NCBI GenBank assembly: GCA_964421985.1
Contig: CAYQZE010000018.1
Coordinates: 583-64,582, forward strand
Length of the DNA stretch: 64,000 nt
Direction: 5' to 3'
DNA from: an uncultured Dehalococcoidia bacterium
GTDB taxonomy: Bacteria; Chloroflexota; Dehalococcoidia; DSTF01; JACRBR01
Made by a program: the position numbers and the translations under genes. The notes under the pieces were generated by a model that saw only the letters and a list, made by a program, of their open reading frames with translations, did not search any database and was not told the DNA's origin. Shown here one piece after another: positions 1 to 63,287 of the stretch; position 1 is the stretch's first letter, and each line of letters begins with the position of its first letter.

Positions 1-385
1 GAACTCGGTCTTCGACAAAGGGCGGTCGCTGCAGCTGCCGGTGTACCTCCACGCGGCGGCGTCGCTGCTCGGCCTGGACCCTTCCCAGGGCGAAGCGCAG
101 TACTTCTACGTCAGCCGGGGCGGTGGCTATCGCCGCAAAACGCTCACGGGCGGTGCATTGGCCCGGCAGCAGGGGCAGCAGGGGCAGCTGGAGCAGATCC
201 TCACCACGATCGCGAATGGCGTCGACGGCGGCTTCTTCGCGGCGAATCCGGGCGGAAAGGGGCGGCAGAACTGCGCGTACTGCGAAGTCAGAGATATCTG
301 CGACACGGGCATCGAGCGCATCGCGCTCCGCAAGGCGGATGATTCGCGGGGCGCCGCGTATCGGGCATTGGAGGACGTCGTATGA
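1..385 (+). CDS. helicase-nuclease subunit (AddB/AdnA-like), C-terminal fragment; gene begins upstream of the window
   Basis: Frame 2 is open from the window edge to TGA at 383-385. C-terminal motif CAYCEVRDIC (CxxCx5C) matches the Fe-S-containing nuclease domain of AddB/RecB-type proteins. The stop overlaps the ATG of the next gene (ATGA). Confidence 0.55.
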   Translation, partial: NSVFDKGRSLQLPVYLHAAASLLGLDPSQGEAQYFYVSRGGGYRRKTLTGGALARQQGQQGQLEQILTTIANGVDGGFFAANPGGKGRQNCAYCEVRDICDTGIERIALRKADDSRGAAYRALEDVV

Positions 386-3300
386 CGAATTCGTTCACTC
401 CGTCCGATCGGCGTGTGCGCGATGACATCCGCACGCAGCTGGACGCCAATATCTGTGTCGAAGCCGGCGCCGGCACGGGCAAGACGACCGTGCTCGTCGA
501 CCGCATCGTGGAAGTACTGCGCCGTGAACACGCCGCGGTCGCGCAATTGGTGGTGATCACATTTACCGAGAAGGCTGCGGCGGAACTGGCATCACGTGTG
601 CGGCGCGGGCTGGAGGACGCTCTGCGCGCCGCACCGGATGACGCCGAGCGCGACTGCCTGGCGGCGGCGATCCGCGGGTTGAACCACGCGCACATCGAGA
701 CGATCCACGCGTTCGCGGCGAGCTTGCTGAGGGAGCGTCCGGTCGAGGCGCTGATGGACCCCGGATTCGACGTGCTGGATGAGCTGCCCGCCCAACTGGC
801 GTTCAGCGCAGCCTGGGACGCGTGGCTGACGGATGAGCTAGCGCAAGAACCGCCGTCCCCGGCGCTCCTGAACATCCTCGACCTGAATCTCGACTTCCGT
901 TACGTGCGCGAGGCGGCGGAGCGGCTGAACCGCCACCGGTACGCCCTGCCGCTGCGCGCCTATCCCGCGGCGCCTCGCGACCCGAAGGCGTTGCTGGCCG
1001 CGCTCGGAGAGGCGGCGATCCGCCTGCGCGAACTCGACCGCCGCGTAGGTGCGTTCGAGGATCCGGCCCGGCAGGCGATGCCGGAGTACATCGAGCGCTT
1101 GGAACAGCTGCTCGAGCTGGGCGCAGGAAGCCCCGCGCTGCCCCACGCGCTGGCCTCGATCACATTTCCCGCGACCCACCTCGGGAACAAGCAGCGCTGG
1201 CCACGTCCATCCGATTGCGACGCGGCTAAGGCCGGCATGAAGTTCGTGAAGGGGGCCATCGGCGAGTACGTCGGGGCGCTGCGGAGTGCCGCCACGGGTG
1301 ATCTGGTGCGCTGGCTCGAAGGCTTCGTGCGCTTCTTCGAGCAACGGCGGCGTCGCGACGGCGTCGCCGACTTCGACGACCTGCTGCTCCGTGCGCGCGA
1401 CCTGGTGCGGGATGCGCCGGAGGTCCGGCGTTACTTCCAGGGCAAGTATCGCTGCATCCTGGTCGACGAGTTTCAGGATACCGACCCGGTGCAGGCGGAG
1501 ATGATCGTGCGCCTGTGCGCCGAGGACGGCGGCGAGGCCGACTGGCGGGCGGCGACGTTGCGCGCCGGGGCGCTCTTCGTCGTTGGCGACCCCAAGCAGT
1601 CCATCTACCGCTTCCGGCGCGCCGACATCACCATGTACGACGAGGTGAAGCGCGGCCTGTTCCACGGCGAACGCGCGATCGTCCAGAACTTTCGCTCGGC
1701 GACGCCGATCATCGGCTGGATCAACGATGTGTTCGGGCGGATGATCACCGCGAGCCAGGGAGTGCAGCCGGCCTATGTCCCGCTCGAGCATCAGCCGGCG
1801 TTCGAGGCGGGCGCGGTGGCGCTGGTGCGAGGGACCGTCGCCGCCTCCGCGAAGATCGCCGACGTCCGGTCGGCCGAGGCGTCGGCGCTGGCTGGGCTGA
1901 TCGCCCGCGAGGTGAACGCCGGTAGCTGGGCGGTGAGAGGGGAAGGCAACGGGGATCCGCGTCCCGCGACGTGGCGCGACGTGGGGGTGTTGATCCCGTC
2001 TCGTACAGAGCTGCAGATCTACGAAGACGCCTTCGCCCGCGCACGCATCCCGTATCGGCATGAAGGCGGACGCACGTTTTTCCTCCGACAGGAGGTGCGG
2101 GAGCTGGTCGCCGTCCTGCGCGCCATCGACGACCCGTCGGACGGCGTCGCGGCGATCGCAGCGCTGCGTTCGGCCGGGTTCGGCTGCTCGGACGAAGACC
2201 TGTTCATCCATCGCAGCGAGGGTGGCCGCTTCGATCACGCCGCGCCAAGGCGCACGGGCGTCGCATCCGTCACCTACGCCCTCGGCACGCTGCACGAGTT
2301 CGCGGAGATGCGCCGCACGATGGCGCTTCCGGATCTTGTGCGTGCCGTGCTCGATCGCACGCGGCTTGTCGAGTTCGCGATGCTGCAGCCGCACGGCGAT
2401 CAGGTCGCGGCCAATCTGTTGAAGATGATCGACCAGGCGCGCGCCTTCGCCGATGCCGAGGGCAGCGGATTGCGCGGGTTCACGCGCTGGCTGAAGGACA
2501 ACGTGACGCGCGCAGCCGACCCACGCGCCGGGTCTGGCGGCGACGAAACGGATGCCCTGATCAGCGAGGACACGGATGACGTGGTCCGCATCATGACCGT
2601 ACACGCGGCGAAGGGGCTGGAGTTCCCGGTGGTCGTGCTGGCGAACATGTGCGGCGAACGCGCCGATCTGACGAACGTGATTGCCGTCCGAGACGGGGCG
2701 CCGGGCGCCAGCCTCCACATGAAGTTAGGCAAGAAGGACGACGGCTTCCGCACGCCCGGCTACGACGAAGCGGAGGTAACGGAGGATCTGCACCGCGAGG
2801 CCGAGGAGAAGCGCCTGCTGTATGTTGCCGCCACGCGTGCGAAGGACCGCCTGGTCGTCCCGTTCTTCGACAAAGATCACGGCCACGCCAAGCGGACTGA
2901 GCTGTCGAAGTCGCTGAGCGGCTGGCTGAAGTCCGCCGGGGCGGATCAGGGGGAAGCGATCGCCGCTGGGACGCTGCCGGCCGGCGCGGCGGACCTGCCG
3001 GTCTGGCGCGGCAGCATTCGTTCCGCACGACCTGGCGATATTGCTCGTGTATTGGCGGAGCGCGACGCCTGGCTGGGCGCGCACGAAGCGCTCGTGACCG
3101 AAGGGAACAGGCAGCTGCGCGTGCGCACCGCCACGTCGATGAAGGCCGAGATGGAGCCGCCGTGGGCATCGGACGAGCAGATCCGGCGCAGCCGGGCGGC
3201 GGACTTCGGCACGGCCGTGCACGCGTTGCTCGAGCGCATCGATCTGCGTGACCACGCTGACCTCGCGGAGCGGGCACAGGTGGTGGCCGTGGAGTTCGGC

Positions 3301-3732
3301 ATGCGCGAGCGCGCGGGAGAGATCGAGCGCGTCGCTCGCAATGCGCTCGGCAGCCCGGCGCTCGACCGCGCGCGTGCATCGAAGCGCTTCCTGCGGGAGG
3401 TCGCGTTCACCGCTCCGTTGCCGGGCGATGACGGGGGATTCGGGGAGGGGCGAATCGACCTGCTCTTCCTCGAGGATGGAGCCAATGGCCCCGGCATCAT
3501 CGTCGTGGACTACAAGACCGATACGATCCGGCCCCACGAACTGCGGGCCCGCACCGAGAGCTACCGCCCGCAGGCGCTGGTCTACGCCTGGGCGGCGGCG
3601 GCCGCCACGGGACTGCTGGTCCGCGCGGTCGTGTTCCTGTACGCACGTCTGCCGGCAGAATCGATCGTGCCGGTGGATGCGGCATTCGTGGCGGAGTCCG
3701 AGCGAGCGATGCGGTCGCCTGTGCCTGCCTGA
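382..3732 (+). CDS. UvrD/Rep-family ATP-dependent helicase-nuclease subunit (AddA/AdnB-like)
   Basis: 1116 aa. Walker A GAGTGKTT. UvrD-type motifs: DEFQDT, GDPKQSIYRFRRAD, TVHAAKGLEF, LLYVAATRAKD. C-terminal RecB-type PD-(D/E)XK motif GRIDLLFLED...IIVVDYKTD. Translationally coupled to the upstream partial nuclease gene. Confidence 0.85.
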   Translation: MTNSFTPSDRRVRDDIRTQLDANICVEAGAGTGKTTVLVDRIVEVLRREHAAVAQLVVITFTEKAAAELASRVRRGLEDALRAAPDDAERDCLAAAIRGLNHAHIETIHAFAASLLRERPVEALMDPGFDVLDELPAQLAFSAAWDAWLTDELAQEPPSPALLNILDLNLDFRYVREAAERLNRHRYALPLRAYPAAPRDPKALLAALGEAAIRLRELDRRVGAFEDPARQAMPEYIERLEQLLELGAGSPALPHALASITFPATHLGNKQRWPRPSDCDAAKAGMKFVKGAIGEYVGALRSAATGDLVRWLEGFVRFFEQRRRRDGVADFDDLLLRARDLVRDAPEVRRYFQGKYRCILVDEFQDTDPVQAEMIVRLCAEDGGEADWRAATLRAGALFVVGDPKQSIYRFRRADITMYDEVKRGLFHGERAIVQNFRSATPIIGWINDVFGRMITASQGVQPAYVPLEHQPAFEAGAVALVRGTVAASAKIADVRSAEASALAGLIAREVNAGSWAVRGEGNGDPRPATWRDVGVLIPSRTELQIYEDAFARARIPYRHEGGRTFFLRQEVRELVAVLRAIDDPSDGVAAIAALRSAGFGCSDEDLFIHRSEGGRFDHAAPRRTGVASVTYALGTLHEFAEMRRTMALPDLVRAVLDRTRLVEFAMLQPHGDQVAANLLKMIDQARAFADAEGSGLRGFTRWLKDNVTRAADPRAGSGGDETDALISEDTDDVVRIMTVHAAKGLEFPVVVLANMCGERADLTNVIAVRDGAPGASLHMKLGKKDDGFRTPGYDEAEVTEDLHREAEEKRLLYVAATRAKDRLVVPFFDKDHGHAKRTELSKSLSGWLKSAGADQGEAIAAGTLPAGAADLPVWRGSIRSARPGDIARVLAERDAWLGAHEALVTEGNRQLRVRTATSMKAEMEPPWASDEQIRRSRAADFGTAVHALLERIDLRDHADLAERAQVVAVEFGMRERAGEIERVARNALGSPALDRARASKRFLREVAFTAPLPGDDGGFGEGRIDLLFLEDGANGPGIIVVDYKTDTIRPHELRARTESYRPQALVYAWAAAAATGLLVRAVVFLYARLPAESIVPVDAAFVAESERAMRSPVPA

Positions 3733-41947: not shown

Positions 41948-41971
41948 GTAGGGGCGTAGCCTGCTGCGCCC
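41948..41971 (+). repeat. REP element type 1 (GTAG + 9-bp hairpin gggcgtagc/gctgcgccc)
   Basis: GTAGGGGCGTAGCCTGCTGCGCCC. One G-T difference from the copies at 57957 and 58259. Confidence 0.6.
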
Positions 41972-52239: not shown

Positions 52240-53664
52240 TCAGGCGCCGGCGGCGAACGGCGGCCAGCGATCGGCCCACGGCATCGCCGATTCGAGCTGC
52301 GCCGCGACGCGCAGCAGCACGTCGTCGCGCCCGTACGCGCCGACGGCGTGCACGTCGTCGGGCAGGCCGCCCGGCGTCCAATGTAGCGGTAGCGACAACG
52401 CCGGCTGGCCACTAAAGCTGAAGGCGGGCGGGAAGACCCCCGCGCCGACGGCGCCGCCGGTGAGGCCCAGCGGCCACGGAGGCTGCCGGAGCGTCGGCGT
52501 GATGAGGATGTCGTGGCCCGACGCCCACCAGTCGCGGACCGGTCGTGTTTCACGGACGATCGCGTTGATCGCGTCCGTCAGCCGGGCGCCGGACGTGGGC
52601 GTGGCTTCCGCGGCAACGGCGTTTGGGTCATCGAGGTCGGCAGCGGTGACGTCGCGCCCCACCATGTCCGATAGCCACCCTGGCTGCGAGCGCGACACGG
52701 AGATCAGCGCCTGGACATGCGGGAAGATGCGCAGCAAGAGCCCGTCGAGTGCAGGCGGGTGTGACAGTTCAAGGTGGTGCCCAAGCGACGCCAACGACTG
52801 TCCGGTGCGCTCGACGGCCGCGACGCACGCGGCGTCGGTGCTCATTCCTGTTATGACGTCGCGGCGCATCAGCCCGACGCGCAGGGGGCCAGTCGGCGTG
52901 CCGATCGCGTCGCGGTAGGGCGGCGCGGACCTCACGCTCGCGAAGCTCTCGCCGTCGGCCGGACCGCCAACGGCGTCGAGGATGCCCGCCAGGTCGCGGA
53001 CGCTGCGCGCGAGTACGAACTCCGTCCAGACGCGAAGAAGGTCGACTTCGCCGCTCGGCGTGTCCGTCGGCACACGCCCGCGTGAGGGCTTCAATGTCGC
53101 CACGCCGCAGCATGCTGCCGGGTAGCGCAGCGACCCGGTGCCGTCGCTGCCATGGGCGATGGATATCATGCCGCTGGCGACCGCCGCCGCGGACCCGCCG
53201 CTCGATCCGCCGACGCTCCGCGTGACATTCCAGGGATTACGCGTGGCGCCAAAAGACCGAGGCTCTGTTGTGATCCCGCCGGAGAGCTCCGGCACGTTCG
53301 TCTTTCCAAGGAAGATGAATCCGGCGTGACGGAGGCGATGCGCCAGCTCCGTGGTGTGCTTCGAGCGGTAGCCCGCGTCACGCAGGAGCCGCGTGCCGAT
53401 GTAGTAGGGCGTCCCTTCGACCTGGATGCACGCGTCCTTCAACAACATCGGCACGCCCGCGAACGCCCCGGTGCCGTAGTCGCCGTCGCGCGCTTGCCGG
53501 CGTGCCGAATCGAACATCGGCGTGACGACGGCGTTGATCTGCGGATTCAGCAGCTCGATGCGGGCGATCGCGGCATCGACCATCTCGACCGCCGTCACCT
53601 GGCGCCCGGCGATCAGCGCCGCCTGCGCGGTGGCGTCCAGCTTCCACAGATCGCGCGTGTCCAT
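52240..53664 (-). CDS. amidase-signature family enzyme
   Basis: GGSSGGSAAAVASGM...GSDGTGSLRYPAACCG amidase signature. Confidence 0.85.
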   Translation of the reverse strand: MDTRDLWKLDATAQAALIAGRQVTAVEMVDAAIARIELLNPQINAVVTPMFDSARRQARDGDYGTGAFAGVPMLLKDACIQVEGTPYYIGTRLLRDAGYRSKHTTELAHRLRHAGFIFLGKTNVPELSGGITTEPRSFGATRNPWNVTRSVGGSSGGSAAAVASGMISIAHGSDGTGSLRYPAACCGVATLKPSRGRVPTDTPSGEVDLLRVWTEFVLARSVRDLAGILDAVGGPADGESFASVRSAPPYRDAIGTPTGPLRVGLMRRDVITGMSTDAACVAAVERTGQSLASLGHHLELSHPPALDGLLLRIFPHVQALISVSRSQPGWLSDMVGRDVTAADLDDPNAVAAEATPTSGARLTDAINAIVRETRPVRDWWASGHDILITPTLRQPPWPLGLTGGAVGAGVFPPAFSFSGQPALSLPLHWTPGGLPDDVHAVGAYGRDDVLLRVAAQLESAMPWADRWPPFAAGA

Positions 53665-53735: not shown

Positions 53736-56465
53736 TCAGGACACCACGCGGATACGCGAGCCGTTCCCGCACGTCTCGACGAGGATCTGGTCGGGAAAAT
53801 TGTCGCGATTGGTGAACGCGTCGAGGTGCGATACGACGATCACCTTATCCATGTGCGTCGCCAGTTGCCGCAGCTCATCCACCATCTGCTGCTGGCCGGC
53901 GGCGTCGAGGCTGCCGAAGCCCTCGTCGATGACGATCGAGCGCATGCCGCCGGCCCCCGCATACTGCCCGATGCCCGACGCGATGGCGACCGCGCAGCGG
54001 AACTTCTGTGAGCCGGACAGCACCTTCGGGCTACGTGGCTCTCGCATGCACGTGGAGTCGATCGCCAGCAGCTCCAGCAGGTCGCCCTTGGGGCGCTCGA
54101 TGGCGAGCTGCAGCGTGCCGCCGGTGAGCCGCTGCAGGAACGCGTTCGCGTTGCTGGTGATCGCGTTCAGCGCGTCCGTGATCAGCACGCCCTGCAGCCC
54201 TTTCTTGCCGAGCAGATCGGCGAGCTTCTTCAGTCGCTTGATCCGTACCTCGCCGTGCGCGCGTTCTGCCTGCTTGCGCGCCAGCTCGTCGATGCGCGCT
54301 TCGAGGAGCGTGAGCCGCTGTTGCGCGGCCTGCGCCGTGCGCCGCGCTGCATCCGCTTGGGCTTCCGCGCCGGCGGCGATGACGCGCGCGGTCGCCTCGT
54401 CGATGCGGTGGTCCGCCGGGATCGACGCGACCTCGCTCTGCTTCGCCGCGCGCTCGCCGCTGCAGGCCGCGTGGTCGCGCAGCGCCTCATCGAGGGAGGA
54501 CTTGCGTTGCGGCGCACCAGCGAGATCCTGGCGGTGCGAGCGCAGCGTGGCAAGCGTGCCAGCCGCGTCGTCCAATGCAGGCTCCGCCAGCGCGCCAAGA
54601 CCGCGGGCGACCTCCTCGGCGGCCTGATGATGCCCGACAGCTTCCTGCGTCCGATGCGCCGCCGTCGCCTCGAGTGCCGCTCGCTGGTCGCGGGCCGTCG
54701 CGAGCGCATCGCGCGCTGCCGCTTCTGCCGCGCGCGACGCATCCAGCTGACGTCGCGCGCCCGCAAGCGCGACCTGCAACGACTCGAGTTGACGCACCGT
54801 GCGCGCGTGCGCCTCCTGCGCCGGTCCGACGTCCTTGTTGCGCCCGTTGAGCTTCGCCTCATGCGCGGCGAGCACCGTCGTCGCGCGCTCGTGCTCCAGC
54901 ACGGCGGCTGCGCGCTGTCCATCAAGACGGTGCAGCTGCTGCTCGACCGTCTTCATGCCCTCGGCGATTTCGTCGTGCCGCTGCCGGGCGGCGGCTCGGG
55001 CAGCGGCCGCCCGTTTCTCCGCGGCACGTGCGCCCGTCGCCTGCTGCTGCGCGGCCGCGAGCTGCGCCGTCAGCTCGCCGATCTGTTCCTTCGCCGCCTT
55101 CTTGTCGATCGGATGCCCGCAGCGTGTACAGGTCGATTCCTTTGCGGCGGCTTTGCGGTCGGCCAGCTGTTGCCTGACGGCGCCCGCGGCTGCATCGGCC
55201 TCGGCAGCTGCCGTGCGCGCCGCGTCGAGCGTGGCATCCGCCTGTTCGGCGGCCATCCGCGCGGCGGCGGCATCACGCGCGACGGACTCCCGGCCGGCCG
55301 ACAGCTCGCGGAGCTGTGCGTTCGCTTGCGTCCGCTGCTCGGCGATGGCCGCGACGCGTGCCTGGCCCTCGAGCACCGCACCTGCGATCTGCGCGAAGTC
55401 ACGCGCGTCGCGTTCCGCCGCCGCCGTCGCATCGTGCTCGCGCTCGTCTTTACTCACCTTCTCCGTCAGCGCTCGGACCTGCGCTGCCGCCGCGACGTGC
55501 TCCGCCGTCAGCGCATCGATGTCCAGCGCAGCGGCCCGCTTGCGCGAGTCGTTCGCCGCGCCCTCGGCCTGTTGCGCGTCGGTGAGCAGCGACGCGATCC
55601 GCTGCACGGAGTCGATCGCGCCCTCCAGCGTCTCGAACAGCGCCGCATCCTTCTCGATCTGGTCGCGCTCAGCGATCAGGATCTCGGCTCCGGCAAGCCG
55701 CGCATCGAGCGCCGCGATCTCGCCGGCCAGCCGCGCATGGCGCTGCGCGTCCGCGAGGAGCGTGCGCGCCGCCTGTGCGGCGGCGGCGGCCTGCTGCTCG
55801 CGTTCCAGCGTCGCCGTCAGTTCCTCCCGCAGGCGTATGACGGCGTCGGCATCGACGCCCTCGAATCCTTTGAGGTCTTCCGTGAGCTTGTCGAGAATGA
55901 CCTTCTCCACTTTGTGCGCGTCGCGCGCGCGCTTCTCCAGCGCCTCGTACTCGTGCAGCCCGATCAGGCCGCTGACGATGTCGAATCGCGGCTTCGGGTC
56001 GGCGTCGAGGAAGCGCGTGGCGTCGCCCTGCTGCAACAGAAACGAGGACGTGAACGCCTCGGGCGTCAGTCGCACGATGTGGTCGATGGCGCGTTTCAGC
56101 GCGTCTTCCTTCTGGGTGCCGGGCACCTGCGTCCAGTCGCTCGCGCCGGCGTCCCAGATCCAGAGGCTCTGATCGCGCTCCGCCTCCTTGCGGCCGCGGC
56201 TTCTGCGCACGAGGTAGCGCTGCCCGTCCGTCTCAAACTCGAAGTCGACTGACAGCCGGTCCATGTCTTGCGAGATGAGCTGCGCCGCGTGCACCTTGCC
56301 GAGGCGATGCAGCCCGTAGAGCGCAAACGTGATGGCATCGAAGATGGACGACTTGCCGGCGCCGTTCGCACCGCAGATCGCGATCAGCGGGCCGCCGCCG
56401 AAGTCGGCGACCTGCTCGTCGCGATAGCGCATCCAGCCGCTCATGCGGACGCTCAGCGGGATCAT
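53736..56465 (-). CDS. sbcC: SbcC/Rad50-family SMC-like ATPase with a CxxC zinc hook
   Basis: 909 aa from ATG 56463-56465. Walker A GANGAGKSS. Central coiled coil with CTRCGHP hook. C-terminal signature LSGSQKFRCAVAIA and Walker B VIDEGFGSLD. Confidence 0.85.
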   Translation of the reverse strand: MIPLSVRMSGWMRYRDEQVADFGGGPLIAICGANGAGKSSIFDAITFALYGLHRLGKVHAAQLISQDMDRLSVDFEFETDGQRYLVRRSRGRKEAERDQSLWIWDAGASDWTQVPGTQKEDALKRAIDHIVRLTPEAFTSSFLLQQGDATRFLDADPKPRFDIVSGLIGLHEYEALEKRARDAHKVEKVILDKLTEDLKGFEGVDADAVIRLREELTATLEREQQAAAAAQAARTLLADAQRHARLAGEIAALDARLAGAEILIAERDQIEKDAALFETLEGAIDSVQRIASLLTDAQQAEGAANDSRKRAAALDIDALTAEHVAAAAQVRALTEKVSKDEREHDATAAAERDARDFAQIAGAVLEGQARVAAIAEQRTQANAQLRELSAGRESVARDAAAARMAAEQADATLDAARTAAAEADAAAGAVRQQLADRKAAAKESTCTRCGHPIDKKAAKEQIGELTAQLAAAQQQATGARAAEKRAAAARAAARQRHDEIAEGMKTVEQQLHRLDGQRAAAVLEHERATTVLAAHEAKLNGRNKDVGPAQEAHARTVRQLESLQVALAGARRQLDASRAAEAAARDALATARDQRAALEATAAHRTQEAVGHHQAAEEVARGLGALAEPALDDAAGTLATLRSHRQDLAGAPQRKSSLDEALRDHAACSGERAAKQSEVASIPADHRIDEATARVIAAGAEAQADAARRTAQAAQQRLTLLEARIDELARKQAERAHGEVRIKRLKKLADLLGKKGLQGVLITDALNAITSNANAFLQRLTGGTLQLAIERPKGDLLELLAIDSTCMREPRSPKVLSGSQKFRCAVAIASGIGQYAGAGGMRSIVIDEGFGSLDAAGQQQMVDELRQLATHMDKVIVVSHLDAFTNRDNFPDQILVETCGNGSRIRVVS

Positions 56466-57646
56466 CCGTCGGCTCCTGCCGGCAGAGCGCGCAGTTCTGT
56501 CACCAACTCCAGCAGCGCGGCGCGCTCGTCTTCGGGCATCTGCTGCTCGCCGAGGTAGCGGCGTACCGTTTCCTCGACGTCCGCCGGATTCAAGCCGGCG
56601 ACCGTCGGGACGAGCGGCGCCGCGTCCGTCCACGCGCAGTCGACGTTGCCGTACAGCCGCGGGAAGAGTTGGCGCGCCCGGTCCAGCAGCGGCGCCAGAT
56701 ACGTCCCCTGAGGCACCTGCAGCGTCAGCTTCACGAGCGTCACGTCCGGCCGTGCGATTGTCGCCGCACCGGCCACCAGAGTCGTTTCGTCCGACGCGGT
56801 GATGGCAGCGATCGGAGTCGGGTCGAGCGGCAGCGACGTGACCTCGCGCACGCCGGCCGGGCCGATGTCGGCGAGCAGGACGCGCGGCTGGTAGTCACGC
56901 TCGCCCACATCCATCCGGTCGAGCGCGCCGACGTAGTAGAAGTGCCCGCCACCGAGTTGCTCGGCCTTGTGGATGTGACCGACGACGGTCAGCTCGAACT
57001 CCGGGAAGGCGCCACGCGGCACGACCACATCGTCGCGCGGCGTGATGCGATGCGCCTTCACCGTGGTGCCGGTGACGGTGACATGCGTGAGCAGTACCGT
57101 CGGCAGCCGCTGTTCGGCCGACGCTTTCCGCAGCTCCTCCATCTTCTCGACGAAGAGCTTGGTGAGCTGTTCGTTGCGCTGCGCGACACCGCCCGCATCA
57201 TCGTGCTGGAGTTCGTAGCGCGCGAGCGTGGGGAACGGCAGCATCGCGAAGTTCAGGCGCTCGCCGCGCGCTTCGACGGTGAGCAACTCGGGACGCGTGC
57301 GCAAGGCGATGCGTTCCCCATCGGCGGGCGCGTGCGCACCCAGCCAGGTGCTGGCCATGTCCATGAAGTAGTCGCGATCATGGTTCCCCGCGACAGCGAC
57401 GATGCGCAGCCCGCGCGTCAATGGCCCGGCCAGCGCCTCCATCATCGCCCCGACGGCAGCCCGGGCCGCGCCCCGCTCCTGCGCCTCGAACACGTCGCCC
57501 GCGATCGCCAGCACGTCGACCGCGTGCTCGTCGATGTACGCCGCGATCATCCGGAGCTGCCGCGCCTGATCTGCCAACCGAGGCGCCGGATTCGCGCCGG
57601 CCAGCGAGTATCCCAGGTGCCAGTCGGCGGAGAACAGCACCTTCAT
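56462..57646 (-). CDS. sbcD: SbcD/Mre11-family nuclease
   Basis: MKVLFSADWHLG...AGDVFE...GNHD...calcineurin-like phosphoesterase motifs. Start overlaps the sbcC ATG (ATGA). Stop of the upstream RAYT gene overlaps its ATG. Confidence 0.85.
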   Translation of the reverse strand: MKVLFSADWHLGYSLAGANPAPRLADQARQLRMIAAYIDEHAVDVLAIAGDVFEAQERGAARAAVGAMMEALAGPLTRGLRIVAVAGNHDRDYFMDMASTWLGAHAPADGERIALRTRPELLTVEARGERLNFAMLPFPTLARYELQHDDAGGVAQRNEQLTKLFVEKMEELRKASAEQRLPTVLLTHVTVTGTTVKAHRITPRDDVVVPRGAFPEFELTVVGHIHKAEQLGGGHFYYVGALDRMDVGERDYQPRVLLADIGPAGVREVTSLPLDPTPIAAITASDETTLVAGAATIARPDVTLVKLTLQVPQGTYLAPLLDRARQLFPRLYGNVDCAWTDAAPLVPTVAGLNPADVEETVRRYLGEQQMPEDERAALLELVTELRALPAGADG

Positions 57647-58242
57647 CTGGCGACCTCTGCGCGACCAACGACCGGCGGCGCGGCCTTGCTTAGCCAATAG
57701 TCGAATTCGCGTTCTACGGCGTCGGGTCTCCCGGCCGGATTCTCGCGGTCGAAGGACCACCGCGTGGGGTTGTCGACGATGTACTGGCGGATGCGTCGAA
57801 GCGCGCCTTCGTCCCGAATGATGTGCTCGTGGTAGTTGCGTTGCCACACGATGAACTCACTGCCGGCCAAACGCCGGAGATCCCGAGTCACACGCGCCTT
57901 AAATGAGCGAACGATCGCGCCCAGCGCGCCCGCTTCGACACGAGGCCGCGCATGCTGTAGGGGCGCAGCCTGCTGCGCCCGGTCGGCGGTTGCATCGCGA
58001 TCCCCAAGAAACAAGATGCCATGCACGTGGTTCGGCATGACGACGAACTCGTCGATCTCGATGTACGGATGATGGTTTGGAATGTCCGTCCAAGCGACTT
58101 CTATGATCTGACGCATTCGCAGGTCCGCGAACAATGCTTGGCGACCGCTGGTACAGATCGTGATGAAATAGCCGCCGGGCGTACGGTAGTCGTAGTCCCG
58201 GAGGCGCACGGATCGCCGGTTTGGCGGCACCGAGCCGGTCAT
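57643..58242 (-). mobile_element. REP-associated tyrosine transposase (RAYT; IS200/IS605-like Y1 HuH transposase family, TnpA_REP)
   Basis: 199 aa. RRSVRLRDYDYRTPGGYFITICT resembles the RAYT N-terminus. HuH motif PNHVHGILFL. Catalytic Tyr region RNYHEHIIRDE. A REP copy lies inside the CDS (57957-57980) and another 17 nt upstream (58259-58282). Confidence 0.8.
57957..57980 (+). repeat. REP element type 1 inside the RAYT coding sequence
   Basis: GTAGGGGCGCAGCCTGCTGCGCCC. Encodes ...QQAAPLQ... within a linker of the RAYT protein. Confidence 0.65.
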
Positions 58243-58258
58243 CGCGATCGCCCGTTCC

Positions 58259-58282
58259 GGGCGCAGCCCGCTGCGCCCCTAC
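58259..58282 (-). repeat. REP element type 1 (inverted orientation) just upstream of the RAYT start
   Basis: Reverse complement reads GTAGGGGCGCAGCGGGCTGCGCCC. Confidence 0.65.
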
Positions 58283-58316
58283 AGTGCCTCCGCGATCGTT
58301 CAGGAAGCTGCCCCAT

Positions 58317-60266
58317 CTACATCTCCAGAGACTGCGCCTTGCGCTTGCCGTCCGGCGACGGCGTCACCTTCCCGGCGTCGATGCCGGGCGCGCGCTCGGC
58401 GCCGGCGAGGCAGTCCGGCGGCGTGTCGGTTGCCTCTTCTGGGCGCATCGCCCAGGGCGGGCGCGGCACCTTCACGTGCAGTGCCTCGCGAAAGTTCGGT
58501 GCGACGATGACTTTCTCCTCCGGGCTCAGCCGCAGCGCGAGCTTGCGGTCGCCCTCGGAGAAGCCGCGCCAGATCGCATCCGCCAGCTCCTGCCCGCCGG
58601 AGCGGCCCAGCACGCGCGTCTGGCTGTTCTCGATCACGACGTCCGACACGCGCGACCCCTGCTGCTGCGCGCCGAAGAGGATGATGCCGCGTGAGCGCAT
58701 CTGGCTGGCGACGTACTCGAACAGCCTGGTGATCGCGTCCGATGCGCCGCGCGGCGCGTAGCGGTTGAGTTCGTCGATGACGACGAGAAAGGTCTCGTAA
58801 CGCGCTGCGTGCGGGCCGCTCCGCCACTGCACGAGCTGGTTGAGCGCCGCCGCGATGACGAAGCGCTGCAGGTGCGCGTCGTGGATCGACTGGATGTCGA
58901 TGACGCTGACATCCTCCTGCATCGTCACCAGCGAGAGCGGCGCGCCCTCGATGTCGTCGCGGCGCAGCAGCCCCGACGTCGGTCCGAGCACGCGCGCGAG
59001 CCTGCGCCACAGCGCCTGGATGGTGGAGTTGCTCATGCTGCGCAGGCTGTCGTCGTCGACATCCTTCGACTCAGGTTGCGCCTTCATTTCGATGTAGTTC
59101 AGCAGGTCCTGGAATGTCAGCACCGGGTTGCCGCCGGCGAGGTCGTTCTTGCTGTTGAACGCCCGCTCCAGCGAGTCGGTCAGCTGGCGGCGGGCGGCGA
59201 CGCGCGCGTCGGGTGCGCCGCCCAGCCGCTCCTCCAGGCTCTGCGCCTTCGTGCGGCCGACGGACAGCCGGTGGCTGAGCCAGTTGATCAGCGTGACGAT
59301 GTTATCGTTCGCGCGCGTCTCCTCCGAGAACAGCAGATCGAAGAGGCCGAAATCGATGATGTCCTTCAGTGACCACGAGTACGGCTTCACATCGCCCGGG
59401 CGCTCCGTCGTGATCGGCAGTGGCGCGCCGCTTCGTTGCGATGTCTCGGGCGCGTAGTAGGCGATGCTGCGGAAGATGTCGGGCGACGCCACGCCCATCT
59501 CGCGCCACGTCCGCAGGTCAGCCTCCGTGAACTTGTTGGACCAGCGGTCGAGCCAGAAGAGGTCGAACCCCTTGACGTTGAAGATGATCGCCTTGATCCG
59601 CGGACGCTGGCCGCTTCCCACCATGCCGGCGCCGCGCGTCTTCACGGCGTTGATCGTCTGCGACGCGGCGAGCGTGAGGAACGACGACTTCGTGCCGGAA
59701 CCGGCCGCGCCGTTGACGTTCAGGTGCCCCGACTGCGCGCCCAGCAGGAAATCCTGATCGAGGAATGCTCGGCCCGCGGTGGAGTCCCCGCCGTTGCGGA
59801 TCAGACCGACGCAGACGCCGCGCTCGTCGGCGTACTGGTCGATCTCGTACGCGCGCTCGGCGTCGCGCTCCCCGCACGAAAACACGGTGCTGCCTTCGAT
59901 GGGCGGCGCCAGTTTCGGTGGGAAGGCGTTGACCACGCGCGCCTTTGCGTACGTCACGCCGTCGCGGTCCAGCATCAGGTCATCGGCGATCGGATCGCCG
60001 TCGTGCGCCGCCAGCTCCATGTGCATGGAGCTGATGGTCGAGCGGCGGTAGACCTGCTCGACGACGCCGAACAGCTCGACCTCCGCGCCGCCCATGACCG
60101 TCGGCACGCGCACGATCTGCGTCTGCTCGACGAGCTGCCCGGGCGCCAGCCAGAAGTAGAACTCATCGCCGTTCGCCTCCTGCCCCAGCGGGCAGCCGAT
60201 ACGCCCGACCGCCTGGGGTTCGGGTGCGTCTGGCGTGTGGCCGTTGGCGGAGGAATCCATCGTCAT
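58317..60266 (-). CDS. HerA-like FtsK/HerA-superfamily ATPase (bipolar DNA helicase homologue)
   Basis: 649 aa. P-loop NGAAGSGTKSS. Walker B LVVIDELNRYAP. C-terminal GAQQQGSRVSDVV sensor-like region typical of HerA/FtsK/VirB4 ATPases. N-terminal ~140 aa is consistent with a HAS-barrel. Gene order nurA...herA. Confidence 0.65.
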   Translation of the reverse strand: MTMDSSANGHTPDAPEPQAVGRIGCPLGQEANGDEFYFWLAPGQLVEQTQIVRVPTVMGGAEVELFGVVEQVYRRSTISSMHMELAAHDGDPIADDLMLDRDGVTYAKARVVNAFPPKLAPPIEGSTVFSCGERDAERAYEIDQYADERGVCVGLIRNGGDSTAGRAFLDQDFLLGAQSGHLNVNGAAGSGTKSSFLTLAASQTINAVKTRGAGMVGSGQRPRIKAIIFNVKGFDLFWLDRWSNKFTEADLRTWREMGVASPDIFRSIAYYAPETSQRSGAPLPITTERPGDVKPYSWSLKDIIDFGLFDLLFSEETRANDNIVTLINWLSHRLSVGRTKAQSLEERLGGAPDARVAARRQLTDSLERAFNSKNDLAGGNPVLTFQDLLNYIEMKAQPESKDVDDDSLRSMSNSTIQALWRRLARVLGPTSGLLRRDDIEGAPLSLVTMQEDVSVIDIQSIHDAHLQRFVIAAALNQLVQWRSGPHAARYETFLVVIDELNRYAPRGASDAITRLFEYVASQMRSRGIILFGAQQQGSRVSDVVIENSQTRVLGRSGGQELADAIWRGFSEGDRKLALRLSPEEKVIVAPNFREALHVKVPRPPWAMRPEEATDTPPDCLAGAERAPGIDAGKVTPSPDGKRKAQSLEM

Positions 60267-60688
60267 CGGCGCTCCAGTACCTCACCCCCCGACCCCCTCT
60301 CCACGACGTGGAGAGGGGGGGCAGGAGCACCGAGCGTGCGCAGTATGTCACCGAGAACTTGCTTGATGTTCTCGAGGACGGTGTGGTTGGTTACGCGAAG
60401 AAATCGGATGCCGCGTTGCTTCAGGTATTCCTGACGCGCGAAGTCTTCGTGCACCCGTCGATCGTGCACGGGCCCGTCGACTTCGATGACAACGCCTAGT
60501 TCGACACAATAGAAGTCCACAATGAACCGGCCGATCGGATGCTGGCGACGGAACTTCCATCCGCCCAGCCGTTTGCCTCGCAAACGCTCCCACAACAGCG
60601 CCTCCGCCTGCGTCGGCTCATGCCGCATCGAGCGGGCGAGCTCGCGCTGAGCGGTCCAACTCCGGCCATGCGTTGTGTAGCGTGTCAC
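60263..60688 (-). CDS. DUF559 (Vsr/restriction-endonuclease-like fold) domain protein
   Basis: 141 aa. EALLWERLRGKRLGGWKFRRQHPIGRFIVDFYCVELGVVIEVDGPVH is the canonical DUF559 core. GTG start with AGGAG ribosome-binding site. Stop overlaps the herA ATG. Confidence 0.7.
   Translation of the reverse strand: MTRYTTHGRSWTAQRELARSMRHEPTQAEALLWERLRGKRLGGWKFRRQHPIGRFIVDFYCVELGVVIEVDGPVHDRRVHEDFARQEYLKQRGIRFLRVTNHTVLENIKQVLGDILRTLGAPAPPLHVVERGSGGEVLERR
60293..60319. repeat. 27-bp perfect palindrome CCCCCTCTCCACG-A-CGTGGAGAGGGGG (inside the 3' end of the DUF559 ORF, upstream of herA)
   Basis: Read directly from the sequence. Partner copy at 60710-60734. Confidence 0.85.
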
Positions 60689-60709
60689 AAGAACTCTCCT
60701 CGTGCGGCT

Positions 60710-60734
60710 CCCCTCTCCACGTCGTGGAGAGGGG
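60710..60734. repeat. 25-bp perfect palindrome CCCCTCTCCACG-T-CGTGGAGAGGGG (between the nurA stop and the DUF559 start)
   Basis: Read directly from the sequence. Together with 60293-60319 it brackets a ~440-bp DUF559 unit. Confidence 0.85.
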
Positions 60735-60788
60735 CTGGGGGTGAGGTGCCCCGGCCTGCACCGACGTGTCGCCTTCCCAACAATCCGC

Positions 60789-61880
60789 TCATCTGAACAT
60801 CCGGTGCAGCCGCGGGATCAGCGCGTCCAGGTCGGGCAGGATGGCGTGCAGGTGATCTTCGACCCGCACGATCGGCTCCACGCTGATGCCGGCGCGCGCA
60901 TACGCCAGGTCGCGGTGGCGCAGGCGATACAGGTACGCCGCGAGCCCCGACAGGTAATCCGGCATGTCGTGCGCGTGCGCGCTCTCGACGTACGCCAACG
61001 GCGCCGTCAGGCGGACGATGCCGTACGACGGCGAGGTGCCGGCTTCGCCTGACAGCCGCACGTAGGTGTTCACCAGGTCGACATGCTGCACGGTCCGCAG
61101 GACGAATGCCGGCGTGCGCTCGCCCGGCTTCAGCGCGTAGGTCAGCTCCTGCAGGCCCGCAGGGAGGTACGCCGTCATCTGGCGCTTCACCAGGCCGACG
61201 ATCGGCACGTTGTGCGTCGGCGCGGTCGCGAGGCGGCGTTCGAGCAGGCCGTCCATCAGCGTCGACTTCGCGAAGTCGGCGAGCATGACAGCGCGTTCGG
61301 CTTCCTCCATCGCTTCCATCGCCAGGCTGCGCGTGCCGCGGCGCATCGTATCGAAATCGCCGTGCACCGAGCCCAGCGGGCGTTCCAGCAGGTCGACGTC
61401 GATCGCCCGCAGTGCGTGGAACGCCTCGGCGATCGCGTCGCGCTCGATGCCATCGGAGTACACGCACAGCACCTTGCGCGTGAGCGCCCCGGCGCCGCGC
61501 TTCGTCGCACGCCCGTCGATCTCAAGCGAGGCGGCCGACACGGCGGCGGCGATGATCGGCCTGCGCCGGAAGTCGACGAGCAGCGATCCGACGGTCTTCG
61601 ACTTGATCGAGCCGTCCACGAAGCGCACGGGCGCGTCGTCCGGCGGCGTGCCCGGCGCGATCGGCGCCCAGGCGTGCTGCGGAAGCTCGTATTCGAGTTC
61701 GAGTCCGTCACGCGGCGTGTCGTCCTCGTCGTCCGCCTCGTGTCCGGGAAACGGCGGTACTGACGCATCGTTGAGCGCGCTTGGCGCATACGCCGAGAAG
61801 ATCGTGCGCGGGGGGGCCGATGCGGGCACGAAAGCTCCGGATGCGTTATGTCGCACGTTTGTTCTAGGTGCTTGCTGCAA
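60789..61880 (-). CDS. NurA-like nuclease (RNase-H-fold 5'-3' nuclease partner of HerA)
   Basis: 363 aa. After a low-complexity N-terminal extension, VRFVDGSIKS matches NurA motif I (catalytic Asp in xxDGS). Size and acidic-residue spacing are consistent with a NurA domain. Assignment rests mainly on this motif and on synteny with the HerA-like ATPase. Confidence 0.55.
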   Translation of the reverse strand: MQQAPRTNVRHNASGAFVPASAPPRTIFSAYAPSALNDASVPPFPGHEADDEDDTPRDGLELEYELPQHAWAPIAPGTPPDDAPVRFVDGSIKSKTVGSLLVDFRRRPIIAAAVSAASLEIDGRATKRGAGALTRKVLCVYSDGIERDAIAEAFHALRAIDVDLLERPLGSVHGDFDTMRRGTRSLAMEAMEEAERAVMLADFAKSTLMDGLLERRLATAPTHNVPIVGLVKRQMTAYLPAGLQELTYALKPGERTPAFVLRTVQHVDLVNTYVRLSGEAGTSPSYGIVRLTAPLAYVESAHAHDMPDYLSGLAAYLYRLRHRDLAYARAGISVEPIVRVEDHLHAILPDLDALIPRLHRMFR

Positions 61881-61962
61881 GGATACGACCGCAGCCTTGG
61901 CGATGTAAAGCCATCCGGCCTAGACTCGGGAGCGAACGATGTTTTGCAGATAACGGTGCGCT

Positions 61963-62484
61963 GTGATCACTGAAGTCGAAGTGCGAGAGGCCGGGACCAA
62001 GGGCAACGGCGTCTTCGCGCGAAGGAGCTTTGAGCACGGCGAGTTCATCTTCCGGCGGCGGCACGGGTGTGTCGTCGACGCCCGGGGATTGGAACAGCTC
62101 TCCGCGCAGGATCAGATGCACATCTGCGAGCTCGACTGGGATCGCTTCGCCGTGCTGGTGCCGCCCGGCTGCTACCTCAACCATTCGTGCGATCCGAACG
62201 CGATGCGCAGCGGCGTCAAGGTCTTCGCATGGAAGCGGATCCGCGCCGGAGACGAGATCACGATCGACTATCGGTTGAATGCGTTCGACGGAAGTACCTG
62301 GCCGTGCGACTGCGGCAGCGCCAACTGCTCCGGTGAGGTCGTCGGAAGTTACTTCGCGCTTCCCGCCGAGCGTCAGAGGACGTATCTCCGCTACGCGCCG
62401 CGATTCATCCAGCGCGAGTACCGGCGGCGACAGCATCGGAACGCGGAGACGGTTGCGGTTCAGAAGATGGCGAGGAGTTCGTAG
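61963..62484 (+). CDS. SET-domain protein (putative protein-lysine methyltransferase)
   Basis: 173 aa. GNGVFARRSFEHGEFI, core NHSCDPN, post-SET-like CDCGSANCSG. Confidence 0.75.
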   Translation: MITEVEVREAGTKGNGVFARRSFEHGEFIFRRRHGCVVDARGLEQLSAQDQMHICELDWDRFAVLVPPGCYLNHSCDPNAMRSGVKVFAWKRIRAGDEITIDYRLNAFDGSTWPCDCGSANCSGEVVGSYFALPAERQRTYLRYAPRFIQREYRRRQHRNAETVAVQKMARSS

Positions 62485-63287
62485 ATGTCCAGCGCGAGCC
62501 CAAGGGCGAGAGGCGGACCGAGCGGCGCGAGCGAGACGATGATCGACCGCCGCCCAGCGCCCGTTGCCACGGGCCGAAACCGCCGCATCAGAGACGGCGA
62601 CTGCTGGACGAACAGGAGGTAGACGAACGTCCCAATGATCAACAACGTCTTGGGCGCGTCGCCCGTCTCCGCGATCAGGGCCGCCAACACGATGCCCGTG
62701 GCGGGCACGAGCAGCAGCATGCCGGCGGTTTGCGGCAGGGCCAGTGTGTACGTGACTGCGCCGCCTCGCGCCGCCGGCACGGCGCGTTGAACGCCGTCGT
62801 ACACGGGGGCGATGAGGATGCCGAAGAAGACGAACAACGCAGCGAATATGGCGACGTTGACCATCGGTATGCCGAACTCCGCAAAATCTGGATTGCTGCC
62901 TTCGATGAGCGGCGATCCGAAGATCCCGAGCACGAGGCCGCCGAACGCCAGTCCGCGCCAGCGGCCGGCCCACGCGAGACGCTGCCGCATCGCGGCGTAC
63001 AGCATGCCGCCGAACGCACCCGCGGCGCCTCCGAGCAGCGCGAGGAAGATCGTCCCGCCGACGCTGATCTCGCCTACGGTGAACCCCGCGTCGGTCTCCT
63101 TGCCCAGGTCCGCGTCGCCGGCAATCAGCGCGACGATGCGCATCGCCAGGCGCGAGCCGATGCCGAGCGCCACCATGCCGCAGAGCAGGCCGGCGAACAC
63201 CGACACCGCGACGGTCCTGAGCCCGGCCGCCATCGTCACGAGCCGGCTTTGCGATCCTGATCTGCGTGCTGCGATGACGTCCGCCAT
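62460..63287 (-). CDS. hypothetical polytopic membrane protein
   Basis: Glycine/alanine-rich TM helices. Start uncertain (63287 or 63365). Confidence 0.45.
   Translation of the reverse strand: MADVIAARRSGSQSRLVTMAAGLRTVAVSVFAGLLCGMVALGIGSRLAMRIVALIAGDADLGKETDAGFTVGEISVGGTIFLALLGGAAGAFGGMLYAAMRQRLAWAGRWRGLAFGGLVLGIFGSPLIEGSNPDFAEFGIPMVNVAIFAALFVFFGILIAPVYDGVQRAVPAARGGAVTYTLALPQTAGMLLLVPATGIVLAALIAETGDAPKTLLIIGTFVYLLFVQQSPSLMRRFRPVATGAGRRSIIVSLAPLGPPLALGLALDIYELLAIF

Follow-up and report, generated by a model that had tools for sequence, protein, structure and literature searches.

Whether bacteria, like thermophilic archaea, keep the genes for NurA, HerA and the Mre11/Rad50 homologues SbcD and SbcC together as one DNA-end-processing set is the question raised by a stretch of 64,000 nucleotides from an uncultured Dehalococcoidia bacterium (Chloroflexota; assembly GCA_964421985.1, contig CAYQZE010000018.1, positions 583 to 64,582), referred to here in its full length as the window. 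A first-pass annotation, made from the sequence alone, had described on its minus strand an archaeal-style end-resection operon, considered unusual for bacteria. All six of its gene assignments held: nurA, a DUF559 gene, herA, the gene for a REP-associated tyrosine transposase (RAYT), sbcD and sbcC lie head to tail as minus-strand open reading frames (ORFs) where it had placed them. The four end-processing proteins belong to the families proposed, their catalytic residues are intact, and their genes are tightly packed in an order that is kept across two clades of HerA. The locus is very probably a chromosomal Dehalococcoidia operon whose conserved core, nurA-herA-sbcD-sbcC, makes up a complete DNA-end-processing set, and gene linkage gives good support to the complete four-component resection machine that had been proposed.

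Gene layout and identity of the four proteins

The nurA (60789-61829, 346 aa), herA (58317-60266, 649 aa), sbcD (56462-57646, 394 aa) and sbcC (53736-56465, 909 aa) genes are contiguous and co-oriented, interrupted by the DUF559 gene between nurA and herA and by RAYT between herA and sbcD. Direct reading of the sequence confirmed the ATGA stop/start overlaps claimed for RAYT/sbcD (57646-57643) and sbcD/sbcC (56465-56462), and added a third, missing from the first-pass annotation, at DUF559/herA (60266-60263). Family alignments together with the overlaps place the true starts of sbcD and sbcC at ATG 57646 and ATG 56465, the listed ORFs being too long at their upstream ends. The nurA ORF is open to TTG 61880 (363 aa); its start is most likely GTG 61829 rather than TTG 61880, because a GGAG stands 6 nt upstream of the former and homologues begin there. 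Co-transcription of the four genes is suggested by the stop/start overlaps and by a promoter/terminator scan that found no intrinsic-terminator-like sites on the minus strand inside the operon, although the scan itself was uninformative, with 1 promoter-like site for 0.7 expected and 3 terminator-like sites for 3.6. The GC content of the window is ~68%, and the operon region is uniform with its flanks, with no compositional break.

The profile check proposed for NurA and HerA (PF09376, PF01935 and the HAS-barrel) was negative, as neither protein had a match in Pfam (E <= 0.01). NurA likewise had no match in NCBIfam or PADLOC, while HerA reached 13.8 bits against the NCBIfam helicase_HerA model, the cut-off of which is 970, and matched the PADLOC HerA model over its C-terminal part only (E 3.3e-6). 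As these three scans gave nothing usable, membership of both families was established by structure and by profile-profile comparison.

An AlphaFold2 (AF2) model of NurA built on 52 homologues (pLDDT 90) was compared with the PDB using Foldseek, and the only matches below E 0.1 were the NurAs of Deinococcus radiodurans (7f6d_G, E 9e-15) and Thermotoga maritima (1zup, E 3.4e-12). By sequence, phmmer with the single protein against the PDB gave a chance match only, and a family profile was required to reach D. radiodurans NurA (7f6d_H, E 5e-5). Alignment of the window NurA family with the NurAs of the D. radiodurans-like clade described below by hhalign gave a probability of 97.9% (E 5.7e-13), and a NurA of that clade, from locus L113, matches PF09376, giving an indirect bridge to Pfam. 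The quoted motif VRFVDGS was found at residues 85-91. Residues D89, E195, D210 and E341 did not vary across 10 homologues with identities as low as 42%, and fall on beta1, alpha1, beta4 and the C-terminal helix of the model, respectively, where they would form the NurA active-site pattern with E341 as its probable fourth residue. The active site of Pyrococcus furiosus NurA consists of D51/E105/D126/H411 and that of T. maritima NurA of D49/E140/D157/E280 (PMC3300031); the spacing of the catalytic residues in the window protein resembles the latter. In the model, beta1 is also preceded by an N-terminal beta-strand (residues 34-39), like the dimerisation strand of D. radiodurans NurA; archaeal NurA dimerises via an N-terminal helix and carries extra insertions (PMC9960219). 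With this strand, and with a fourth active-site position that is acidic as in T. maritima NurA, the window protein fits the bacterial type and is predicted to have the RNase H-like NurA fold. Gene adjacency and the N-terminal strand suggest that a NurA dimer may dock on HerA's HAS-barrel ring (2:6).

HerA contains both of the motifs quoted for it, GAAGSGTKS at residues 186-194 and VVIDELNRY at 495-503, and in a phmmer search of the PDB it matched D. radiodurans HerA from end to end (7f6d_B, E 6e-43). Its AF2 model (pLDDT 80) gave a best Foldseek match to the same protein (7wrw_A, E 4e-40, TM 0.73/0.81 over 635 columns), followed by archaeal HerA (3e-21), SIR2-HerA (8e-20) and DUF4297-HerA (1e-18). 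The structure-prediction check that had been suggested was thus positive for both proteins, with the D. radiodurans pair ranking above archaeal and defence HerAs. The HAS-barrel, the RecA-like ASCE core and the inserted helical bundle were all recovered in the full-length phmmer and Foldseek alignments. Walker A (GSGTKS, 189-194), the Walker B residues DE (498-499) and a pore arginine (R506) are present, and K193/S194, D498/E499 and R506 align to K175/T176, D487/E488 and R495 of D. radiodurans HerA, which were shown to be functionally important (PMC9960219). K193, D498 and E499 were invariant among homologues. On sequence and model, the window ATPase is assigned as a bacterial, NurA-partnered HerA, a hexameric DNA translocase.

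D. radiodurans NurA-HerA, for which structures (PDB 7F6D, 7WRW, 7WRX) and a resection mechanism have been described (PMC9960219), is the best structural match for both window proteins, and there too nurA lies directly upstream of herA. Identity to the window proteins is ~26-28% for HerA and 20% for NurA.

SbcD scored 95.3 bits against TIGR00619, above the cut-off of 77.65, and all five phosphoesterase motifs are present (D8xH10, GD50, GNHD 87-90, H188 and GHIH 223-226). For SbcC, the best family was TIGR00618 (E 2.9e-45), with Pfam AAA_23 at E 3e-20; it has Walker A (32-39), an LSGSQ signature (816-820), Walker B IVIDE (844-848), an H-loop histidine (H879) and, at mid-length of its 909 aa, the zinc hook CTRCGHP (446-452, CxxC 446-449) that had been quoted. 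Bacterial models gave both proteins higher scores than archaeal ones did (SbcD, 95 against 27.5 bits; SbcC, 154.6 against 81 bits), so that SbcCD is of bacterial type, unlike archaeal Mre11/Rad50.

Conservation of the gene order

The genomic context of herA was compared in 105 loci drawn from a scan of GTDB species genomes, a metagenome scan with the HerA alignment and two contig look-ups, and all ORFs of these loci were annotated with phmmer and hmmsearch; locus counts include near-identical metagenome loci, such as L022/L023 and L024/L025. Where HerA was ~40% identical to that of the window, NurA was encoded upstream in 55/56 loci and SbcD downstream in 54/55, and all four genes were present in 41/42, the one miss (L090) being a coordinate-filter artefact, as SbcC is present there. 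The corresponding counts for close relatives were 16/19, 19/22 and 12/16. The herA-to-sbcD gap was 30 nt or less in 54 of 80 loci, and in L022 and L024 neighbouring gene calls share 1-4 nt. Named members of the window's HerA clade come from Dehalococcoidia, Chloroflexota and Dormibacterota.

An exhaustive phmmer search of 1.84 billion representatives gave 97 matches at E <= 1e-30, and clustering of HerAs by BLAST separated two clades, one window-like and the other D. radiodurans-like, the latter ~28% identical to the window protein. A profile of the D. radiodurans-like clade retrieved at least 7908 clusters at 90% identity, and its named members include Deinococcus, Deinobacterium, Solirubrobacter and Dehalococcoidia. 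Eight gene contexts were sampled from this clade. NurA, HerA, SbcD and SbcC were encoded in that order in the cultured Solirubrobacter ginsenosidimutans (L106) and in L107, L109, L111 and L113, that is in 5/6 of the sampled non-Deinococcus loci, and in 0/2 of those of Deinococcus type. Divergence between the two HerA clades has run in parallel in all four proteins. Since the same gene order recurs in more than 60 independent loci, a chance arrangement is excluded, and among the loci sampled nurA-herA-sbcD-sbcC is the commonest genomic arrangement of the bacterial NurA-HerA family.

The view that the linkage is unusual for bacteria thus found no support, in the window's own clade as in the D. 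radiodurans-like one, and the more so as a further case had already been published. The sbcD and sbcC genes of Oceanithermus profundus lie directly downstream of herA (hepA), which the authors read as an archaeal-like architecture for double-strand-break repair (Blesa et al. 2017, PMC5448004). This nurA-hepA(herA)-sbcD-sbcC order is the same bacterial linkage as in the window; it differs in phylum (Deinococcota), in falling into the D. radiodurans-like HerA clade and in having been published as a single case. The associated claim, that bacterial HerA-NurA pairs are normally unlinked to sbcCD, stands for Deinococcus-type loci and fails for most other bacterial loci sampled. In D. maricopensis the nurA-herA pair is not followed by sbcDC, whereas in the window and most other sampled bacterial carriers it is. 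A search of the literature found no paper tying NurA or HerA to Chloroflexota repair operons.

The four-gene concept is therefore not new, having been established in archaea and published once before in a bacterium, and the value of the present survey is that it shows linkage to SbcCD as the bacterial norm among the loci sampled. Knowledge of bacterial NurA-HerA comes from Deinococcus and Thermus, in which a link to SbcCD is not visible; outside these genera the survey found the four genes usually in one operon, including that of the cultured actinobacterium S. ginsenosidimutans. This gives a genomic argument for a hand-off from bacterial Mre11/Rad50 to HerA-NurA and points to tractable, culturable organisms. 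The window operon itself adds to the bacterial NurA-HerA family a divergent member that Pfam does not detect and that carries two selfish insertions. It belongs to a sizeable Chloroflexota and Dormibacterota NurA/HerA clade that current Pfam models do not see, and whose proteins annotation pipelines therefore label as "hypothetical" or "ATP-binding protein".

Some loci were of interest in their own right. In L112 (201-2537), a locus of the D. radiodurans-like clade, herA-sbcD-sbcC lies ~2.5 kb from genes for Ku and an ATP-dependent DNA ligase, clustering end-resection with end-joining genes. L002 (7264-9303) and L027 (7926-9899) encode a HerA 88% identical to that of the window, with no nurA or sbcCD within 7-10 kb; in L002 the gene sits among PMT_2 glycosyltransferase-like genes. 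Such a solitary herA may be a relocated copy, a second copy or a mis-assembly of a metagenome-assembled genome. Three Azospirillum-type loci (L018-L020, 8817-9995), found in Azospirillum and Rhodospirillaceae genomes, encode a distant HerA of 24% identity. Upstream of it is a 393-aa ORF with a weak NurA-like profile match (E 6e-7 to 1e-5) and no Pfam match, and sbcCD was not found nearby. This pair may represent a third NurA-HerA lineage.

Coupling of SbcCD to HerA-NurA

From characterised homologues a mechanism can be envisaged for the four proteins. SbcCD, the bacterial Mre11/Rad50, would act as an ATP-driven clamp with a Mn-dependent nuclease, tethered by its zinc hook; on recognising double-strand ends, hairpins or blocked ends it would make the initial cuts that open or trim them. 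The HerA hexamer would draw the duplex through its pore and feed it to a NurA dimer seated on the HAS-barrel face, and NurA would separate and digest the strands, leaving a 3' tail for RecA. The archaeal operon (Sulfolobus, Pyrococcus) links the same four activities as the window; there all four genes are transcribed together and Mre11 binds HerA (PMC2288612), and the archaeal HerA6-NurA2 complex resects ends (PMC3326311). By analogy, a physical or functional hand-off from SbcCD to HerA-NurA may take place in the bacteria that carry this operon. On the broadest reading, SbcCD would regularly partner NurA-HerA across bacteria and be physically coupled to it, and the four proteins would be one ancient end-resection machine from which the unlinked genes of Deinococcus and Thermus are derived exceptions, in parallel with the archaeal and eukaryotic combination of Mre11-Rad50 with a long-range resection motor. 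We put this forward tentatively, as possible rather than probable.

A number of observations weigh against a single, coupled unit. Some lineages can do without the four-gene linkage: in D. maricopensis (L108) and L110, nurA-herA stands without sbcCD, and L112 has herA followed by sbcD-sbcC with no nurA upstream. Among close relatives, L014 is without sbcCD, L009 is without nurA, and L002 and L027 carry herA by itself. In the window, a REP hairpin lies within the 74-nt spacer between herA and RAYT, and 100 nt separate nurA from DUF559; internal transcript processing or termination is possible at both. The SbcC score of 154.6 bits lies far under the TIGR00618 trusted cut-off of 478.5, and from its sequence the protein is classed as a divergent SbcC, SbcC still being its best-scoring family. 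We know of no bacterium in which a direct SbcCD-HerA contact has been demonstrated. The connection of SbcCD to HerA-NurA has been called unresolved (PMC4663267).

Some of these points would also suit an arrangement in which nurA-herA and sbcDC are two independent repair modules, adjacent and perhaps sharing a damage-inducible promoter, that deal with different substrates and involve no hand-off. The genes are unlinked yet retained in Deinococcus-type loci and are split in some relatives (L014, L009 and L112), and D. radiodurans HerA also works with RecJ (PMC4663267). We nevertheless consider independence improbable. The same order, with junctions that overlap or span no more than 30 nt, is kept across HerA clades ~28% identical and in at least two phyla, which would be hard to maintain without selection for co-expression, and the binding of HerA by Mre11 in archaea speaks for contact between the two halves.

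A role of the operon in DNA-end processing is to be preferred with still more assurance over one in anti-phage or anti-plasmid defence, where HerA and SMC-like ATPases would drive nucleases against foreign DNA, as in SIR2-HerA (Nezha), DUF4297-HerA and Lamassu. Destruction of foreign DNA by HerA-NurA was raised as a speculation by Blackwood et al. (PMC3326311). Common to the window, SIR2-HerA and DUF4297-HerA is a hexameric ATPase of the HerA family that has a HAS-barrel (Foldseek E ~1e-18 to 1e-19), and in addition to the partial PADLOC HerA match mentioned above, SbcC matches the PADLOC LmuB model (E 2.3e-33). The LmuB match is, however, a generic similarity of Rad50/SMC heads, since SbcC has a mid-length CxxC zinc hook and SbcD passes its curated cut-off. 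The check on the HerA partner came out in favour of repair, as the neighbour of herA has the NurA fold and no PADLOC match and is not a SIR2 or DUF4297 effector. By Foldseek, D. radiodurans HerA matches the window HerA ~19 orders of magnitude better than the defence HerAs do, and the context is that of a conserved repair operon in stable housekeeping synteny, which includes a SET-domain gene, and not of a variable island. Defence is thus very unlikely.

Constantinesco and colleagues are said to have described the archaeal gene order in 2004 as herA-mre11-rad50-nurA, which differs from the nurA-herA-sbcD-sbcC of the window. Recent horizontal transfer of such an archaeal operon into a bacterium, suggested by the shared set of four functional components, is scarcely credible given this difference in reported order, the bacterial origin of the NurAs and HerAs matched best in structure and sequence (archaeal HerA being much the weaker match), the higher scores of SbcD and SbcC on bacterial models, the uniform GC content and the vertically widespread occurrence of the arrangement in Chloroflexota and related bacteria, and the description as archaeal-style was dropped on the first three of these grounds.

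Inserted elements and neighbouring genes

The DUF559 gene (60263-60688; Pfam PF04480, E 1.4e-33) belongs to a cassette of ~470 bp (60279-60747) bounded by inverted repeats of 32-45 nt (60279-60318 and 60710-60747), with a 32-nt inverted repeat that is 94% complementary. The repeat sequence is CACCTCACCCC...CCCCTCTCCACG-N-CGTGGAGAGGGG; each terminal repeat holds a perfect palindrome with a 12-bp stem, CCCCTCTCCACG-N-CGTGGAGAGGGG, so that the termini are themselves perfect hairpins. This palindrome occurs only twice in the window, where 0 occurrences were expected. The terminal repeat supplies the last ~20 codons of DUF559, whose stop codon overlaps the ATG of herA. DUF559 is flanked by the same pair of palindromes in L001 (12005-12436), L006 (1767-2201) and L040 (242-677). 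In L001 and L006 the cassette separates herA from sbcD, and in L040, as in the window, it stands upstream of herA; empty sites were seen in L001 and L011. Because close relatives carry it at different junctions of this operon, it appears to behave as a small mobile element. As a smaller novelty, such a cassette, inserting just upstream of start codons in the nurA-herA-sbcD-sbcC operon, may be previously undescribed.

RAYT (57643-58242, minus strand, 199 aa) scored 82 bits against NCBIfam NF047646, the cut-off of which is 80, and its HUH residues (H72, H74) and Y137 are invariant. It is absent from most relatives and was found between herA and sbcD in L003, L007, L031 and L034. GTAG-type REP hairpins are associated with it. 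One, GTAGGGGCGCAGCnnnCTGCGCCC, lies at 58257-58284 in the herA-RAYT spacer, just upstream of RAYT; an inverted copy at 57955-57982 lies inside the RAYT ORF, where it encodes RAQQAAPLQ, a peptide conserved in the RAYTs of relatives; a third, at 41948-41971, is 16 kb away. Across the window the REP pattern gave 5 matches at 3 sites against 0.01 expected.

Since both are absent or at other junctions in relatives, the DUF559 cassette and RAYT are regarded, from their sequences, as selfish insertions in operon spacers, outside the conserved unit; for DUF559, insertion had been proposed already and its palindromic terminal repeats bear this out. The stops of both genes overlap the ATG of the next gene, and downstream translation can therefore remain coupled. 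The herA|sbcD spacer is often 212-1063 nt in the close Dehalococcoidia clade, and 30 nt or less, or overlapping, elsewhere. This junction looks like an insertion hot spot in that clade. In L004, L005, L010, L030 and L033 the spacer measures 212-417 nt, though no DUF559 or RAYT was detected in it.

The start of the window had been said to carry an AddAB/AdnAB-type helicase-nuclease as a second end-processing system, and this proved correct as to type. The plus-strand ORF 382-3732 (1116 aa) contains a UvrD helicase and a PD-(D/E)XK nuclease and is AddA/AdnB-like, AddAB and AdnAB not being distinguishable here; upstream of it, 2-381 (+) encodes the C-terminal PD-(D/E)XK end of another protein. 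With such an enzyme in the same 64 kb, the organism has a second end-resection route.

Two neighbouring ORFs were considered and rejected as parts of the operon. The downstream amidase (52240-53664) is conserved in no relative. The 369-aa minus-strand ORF upstream of nurA (61864-62973) was judged spurious and probably a high-GC artefact, because it has no family match and overlaps a conserved SET-domain gene on the opposite strand. The latter gene (61963-62484, plus strand; Pfam E 7e-12) is divergent from nurA and syntenic in L001 and L013.

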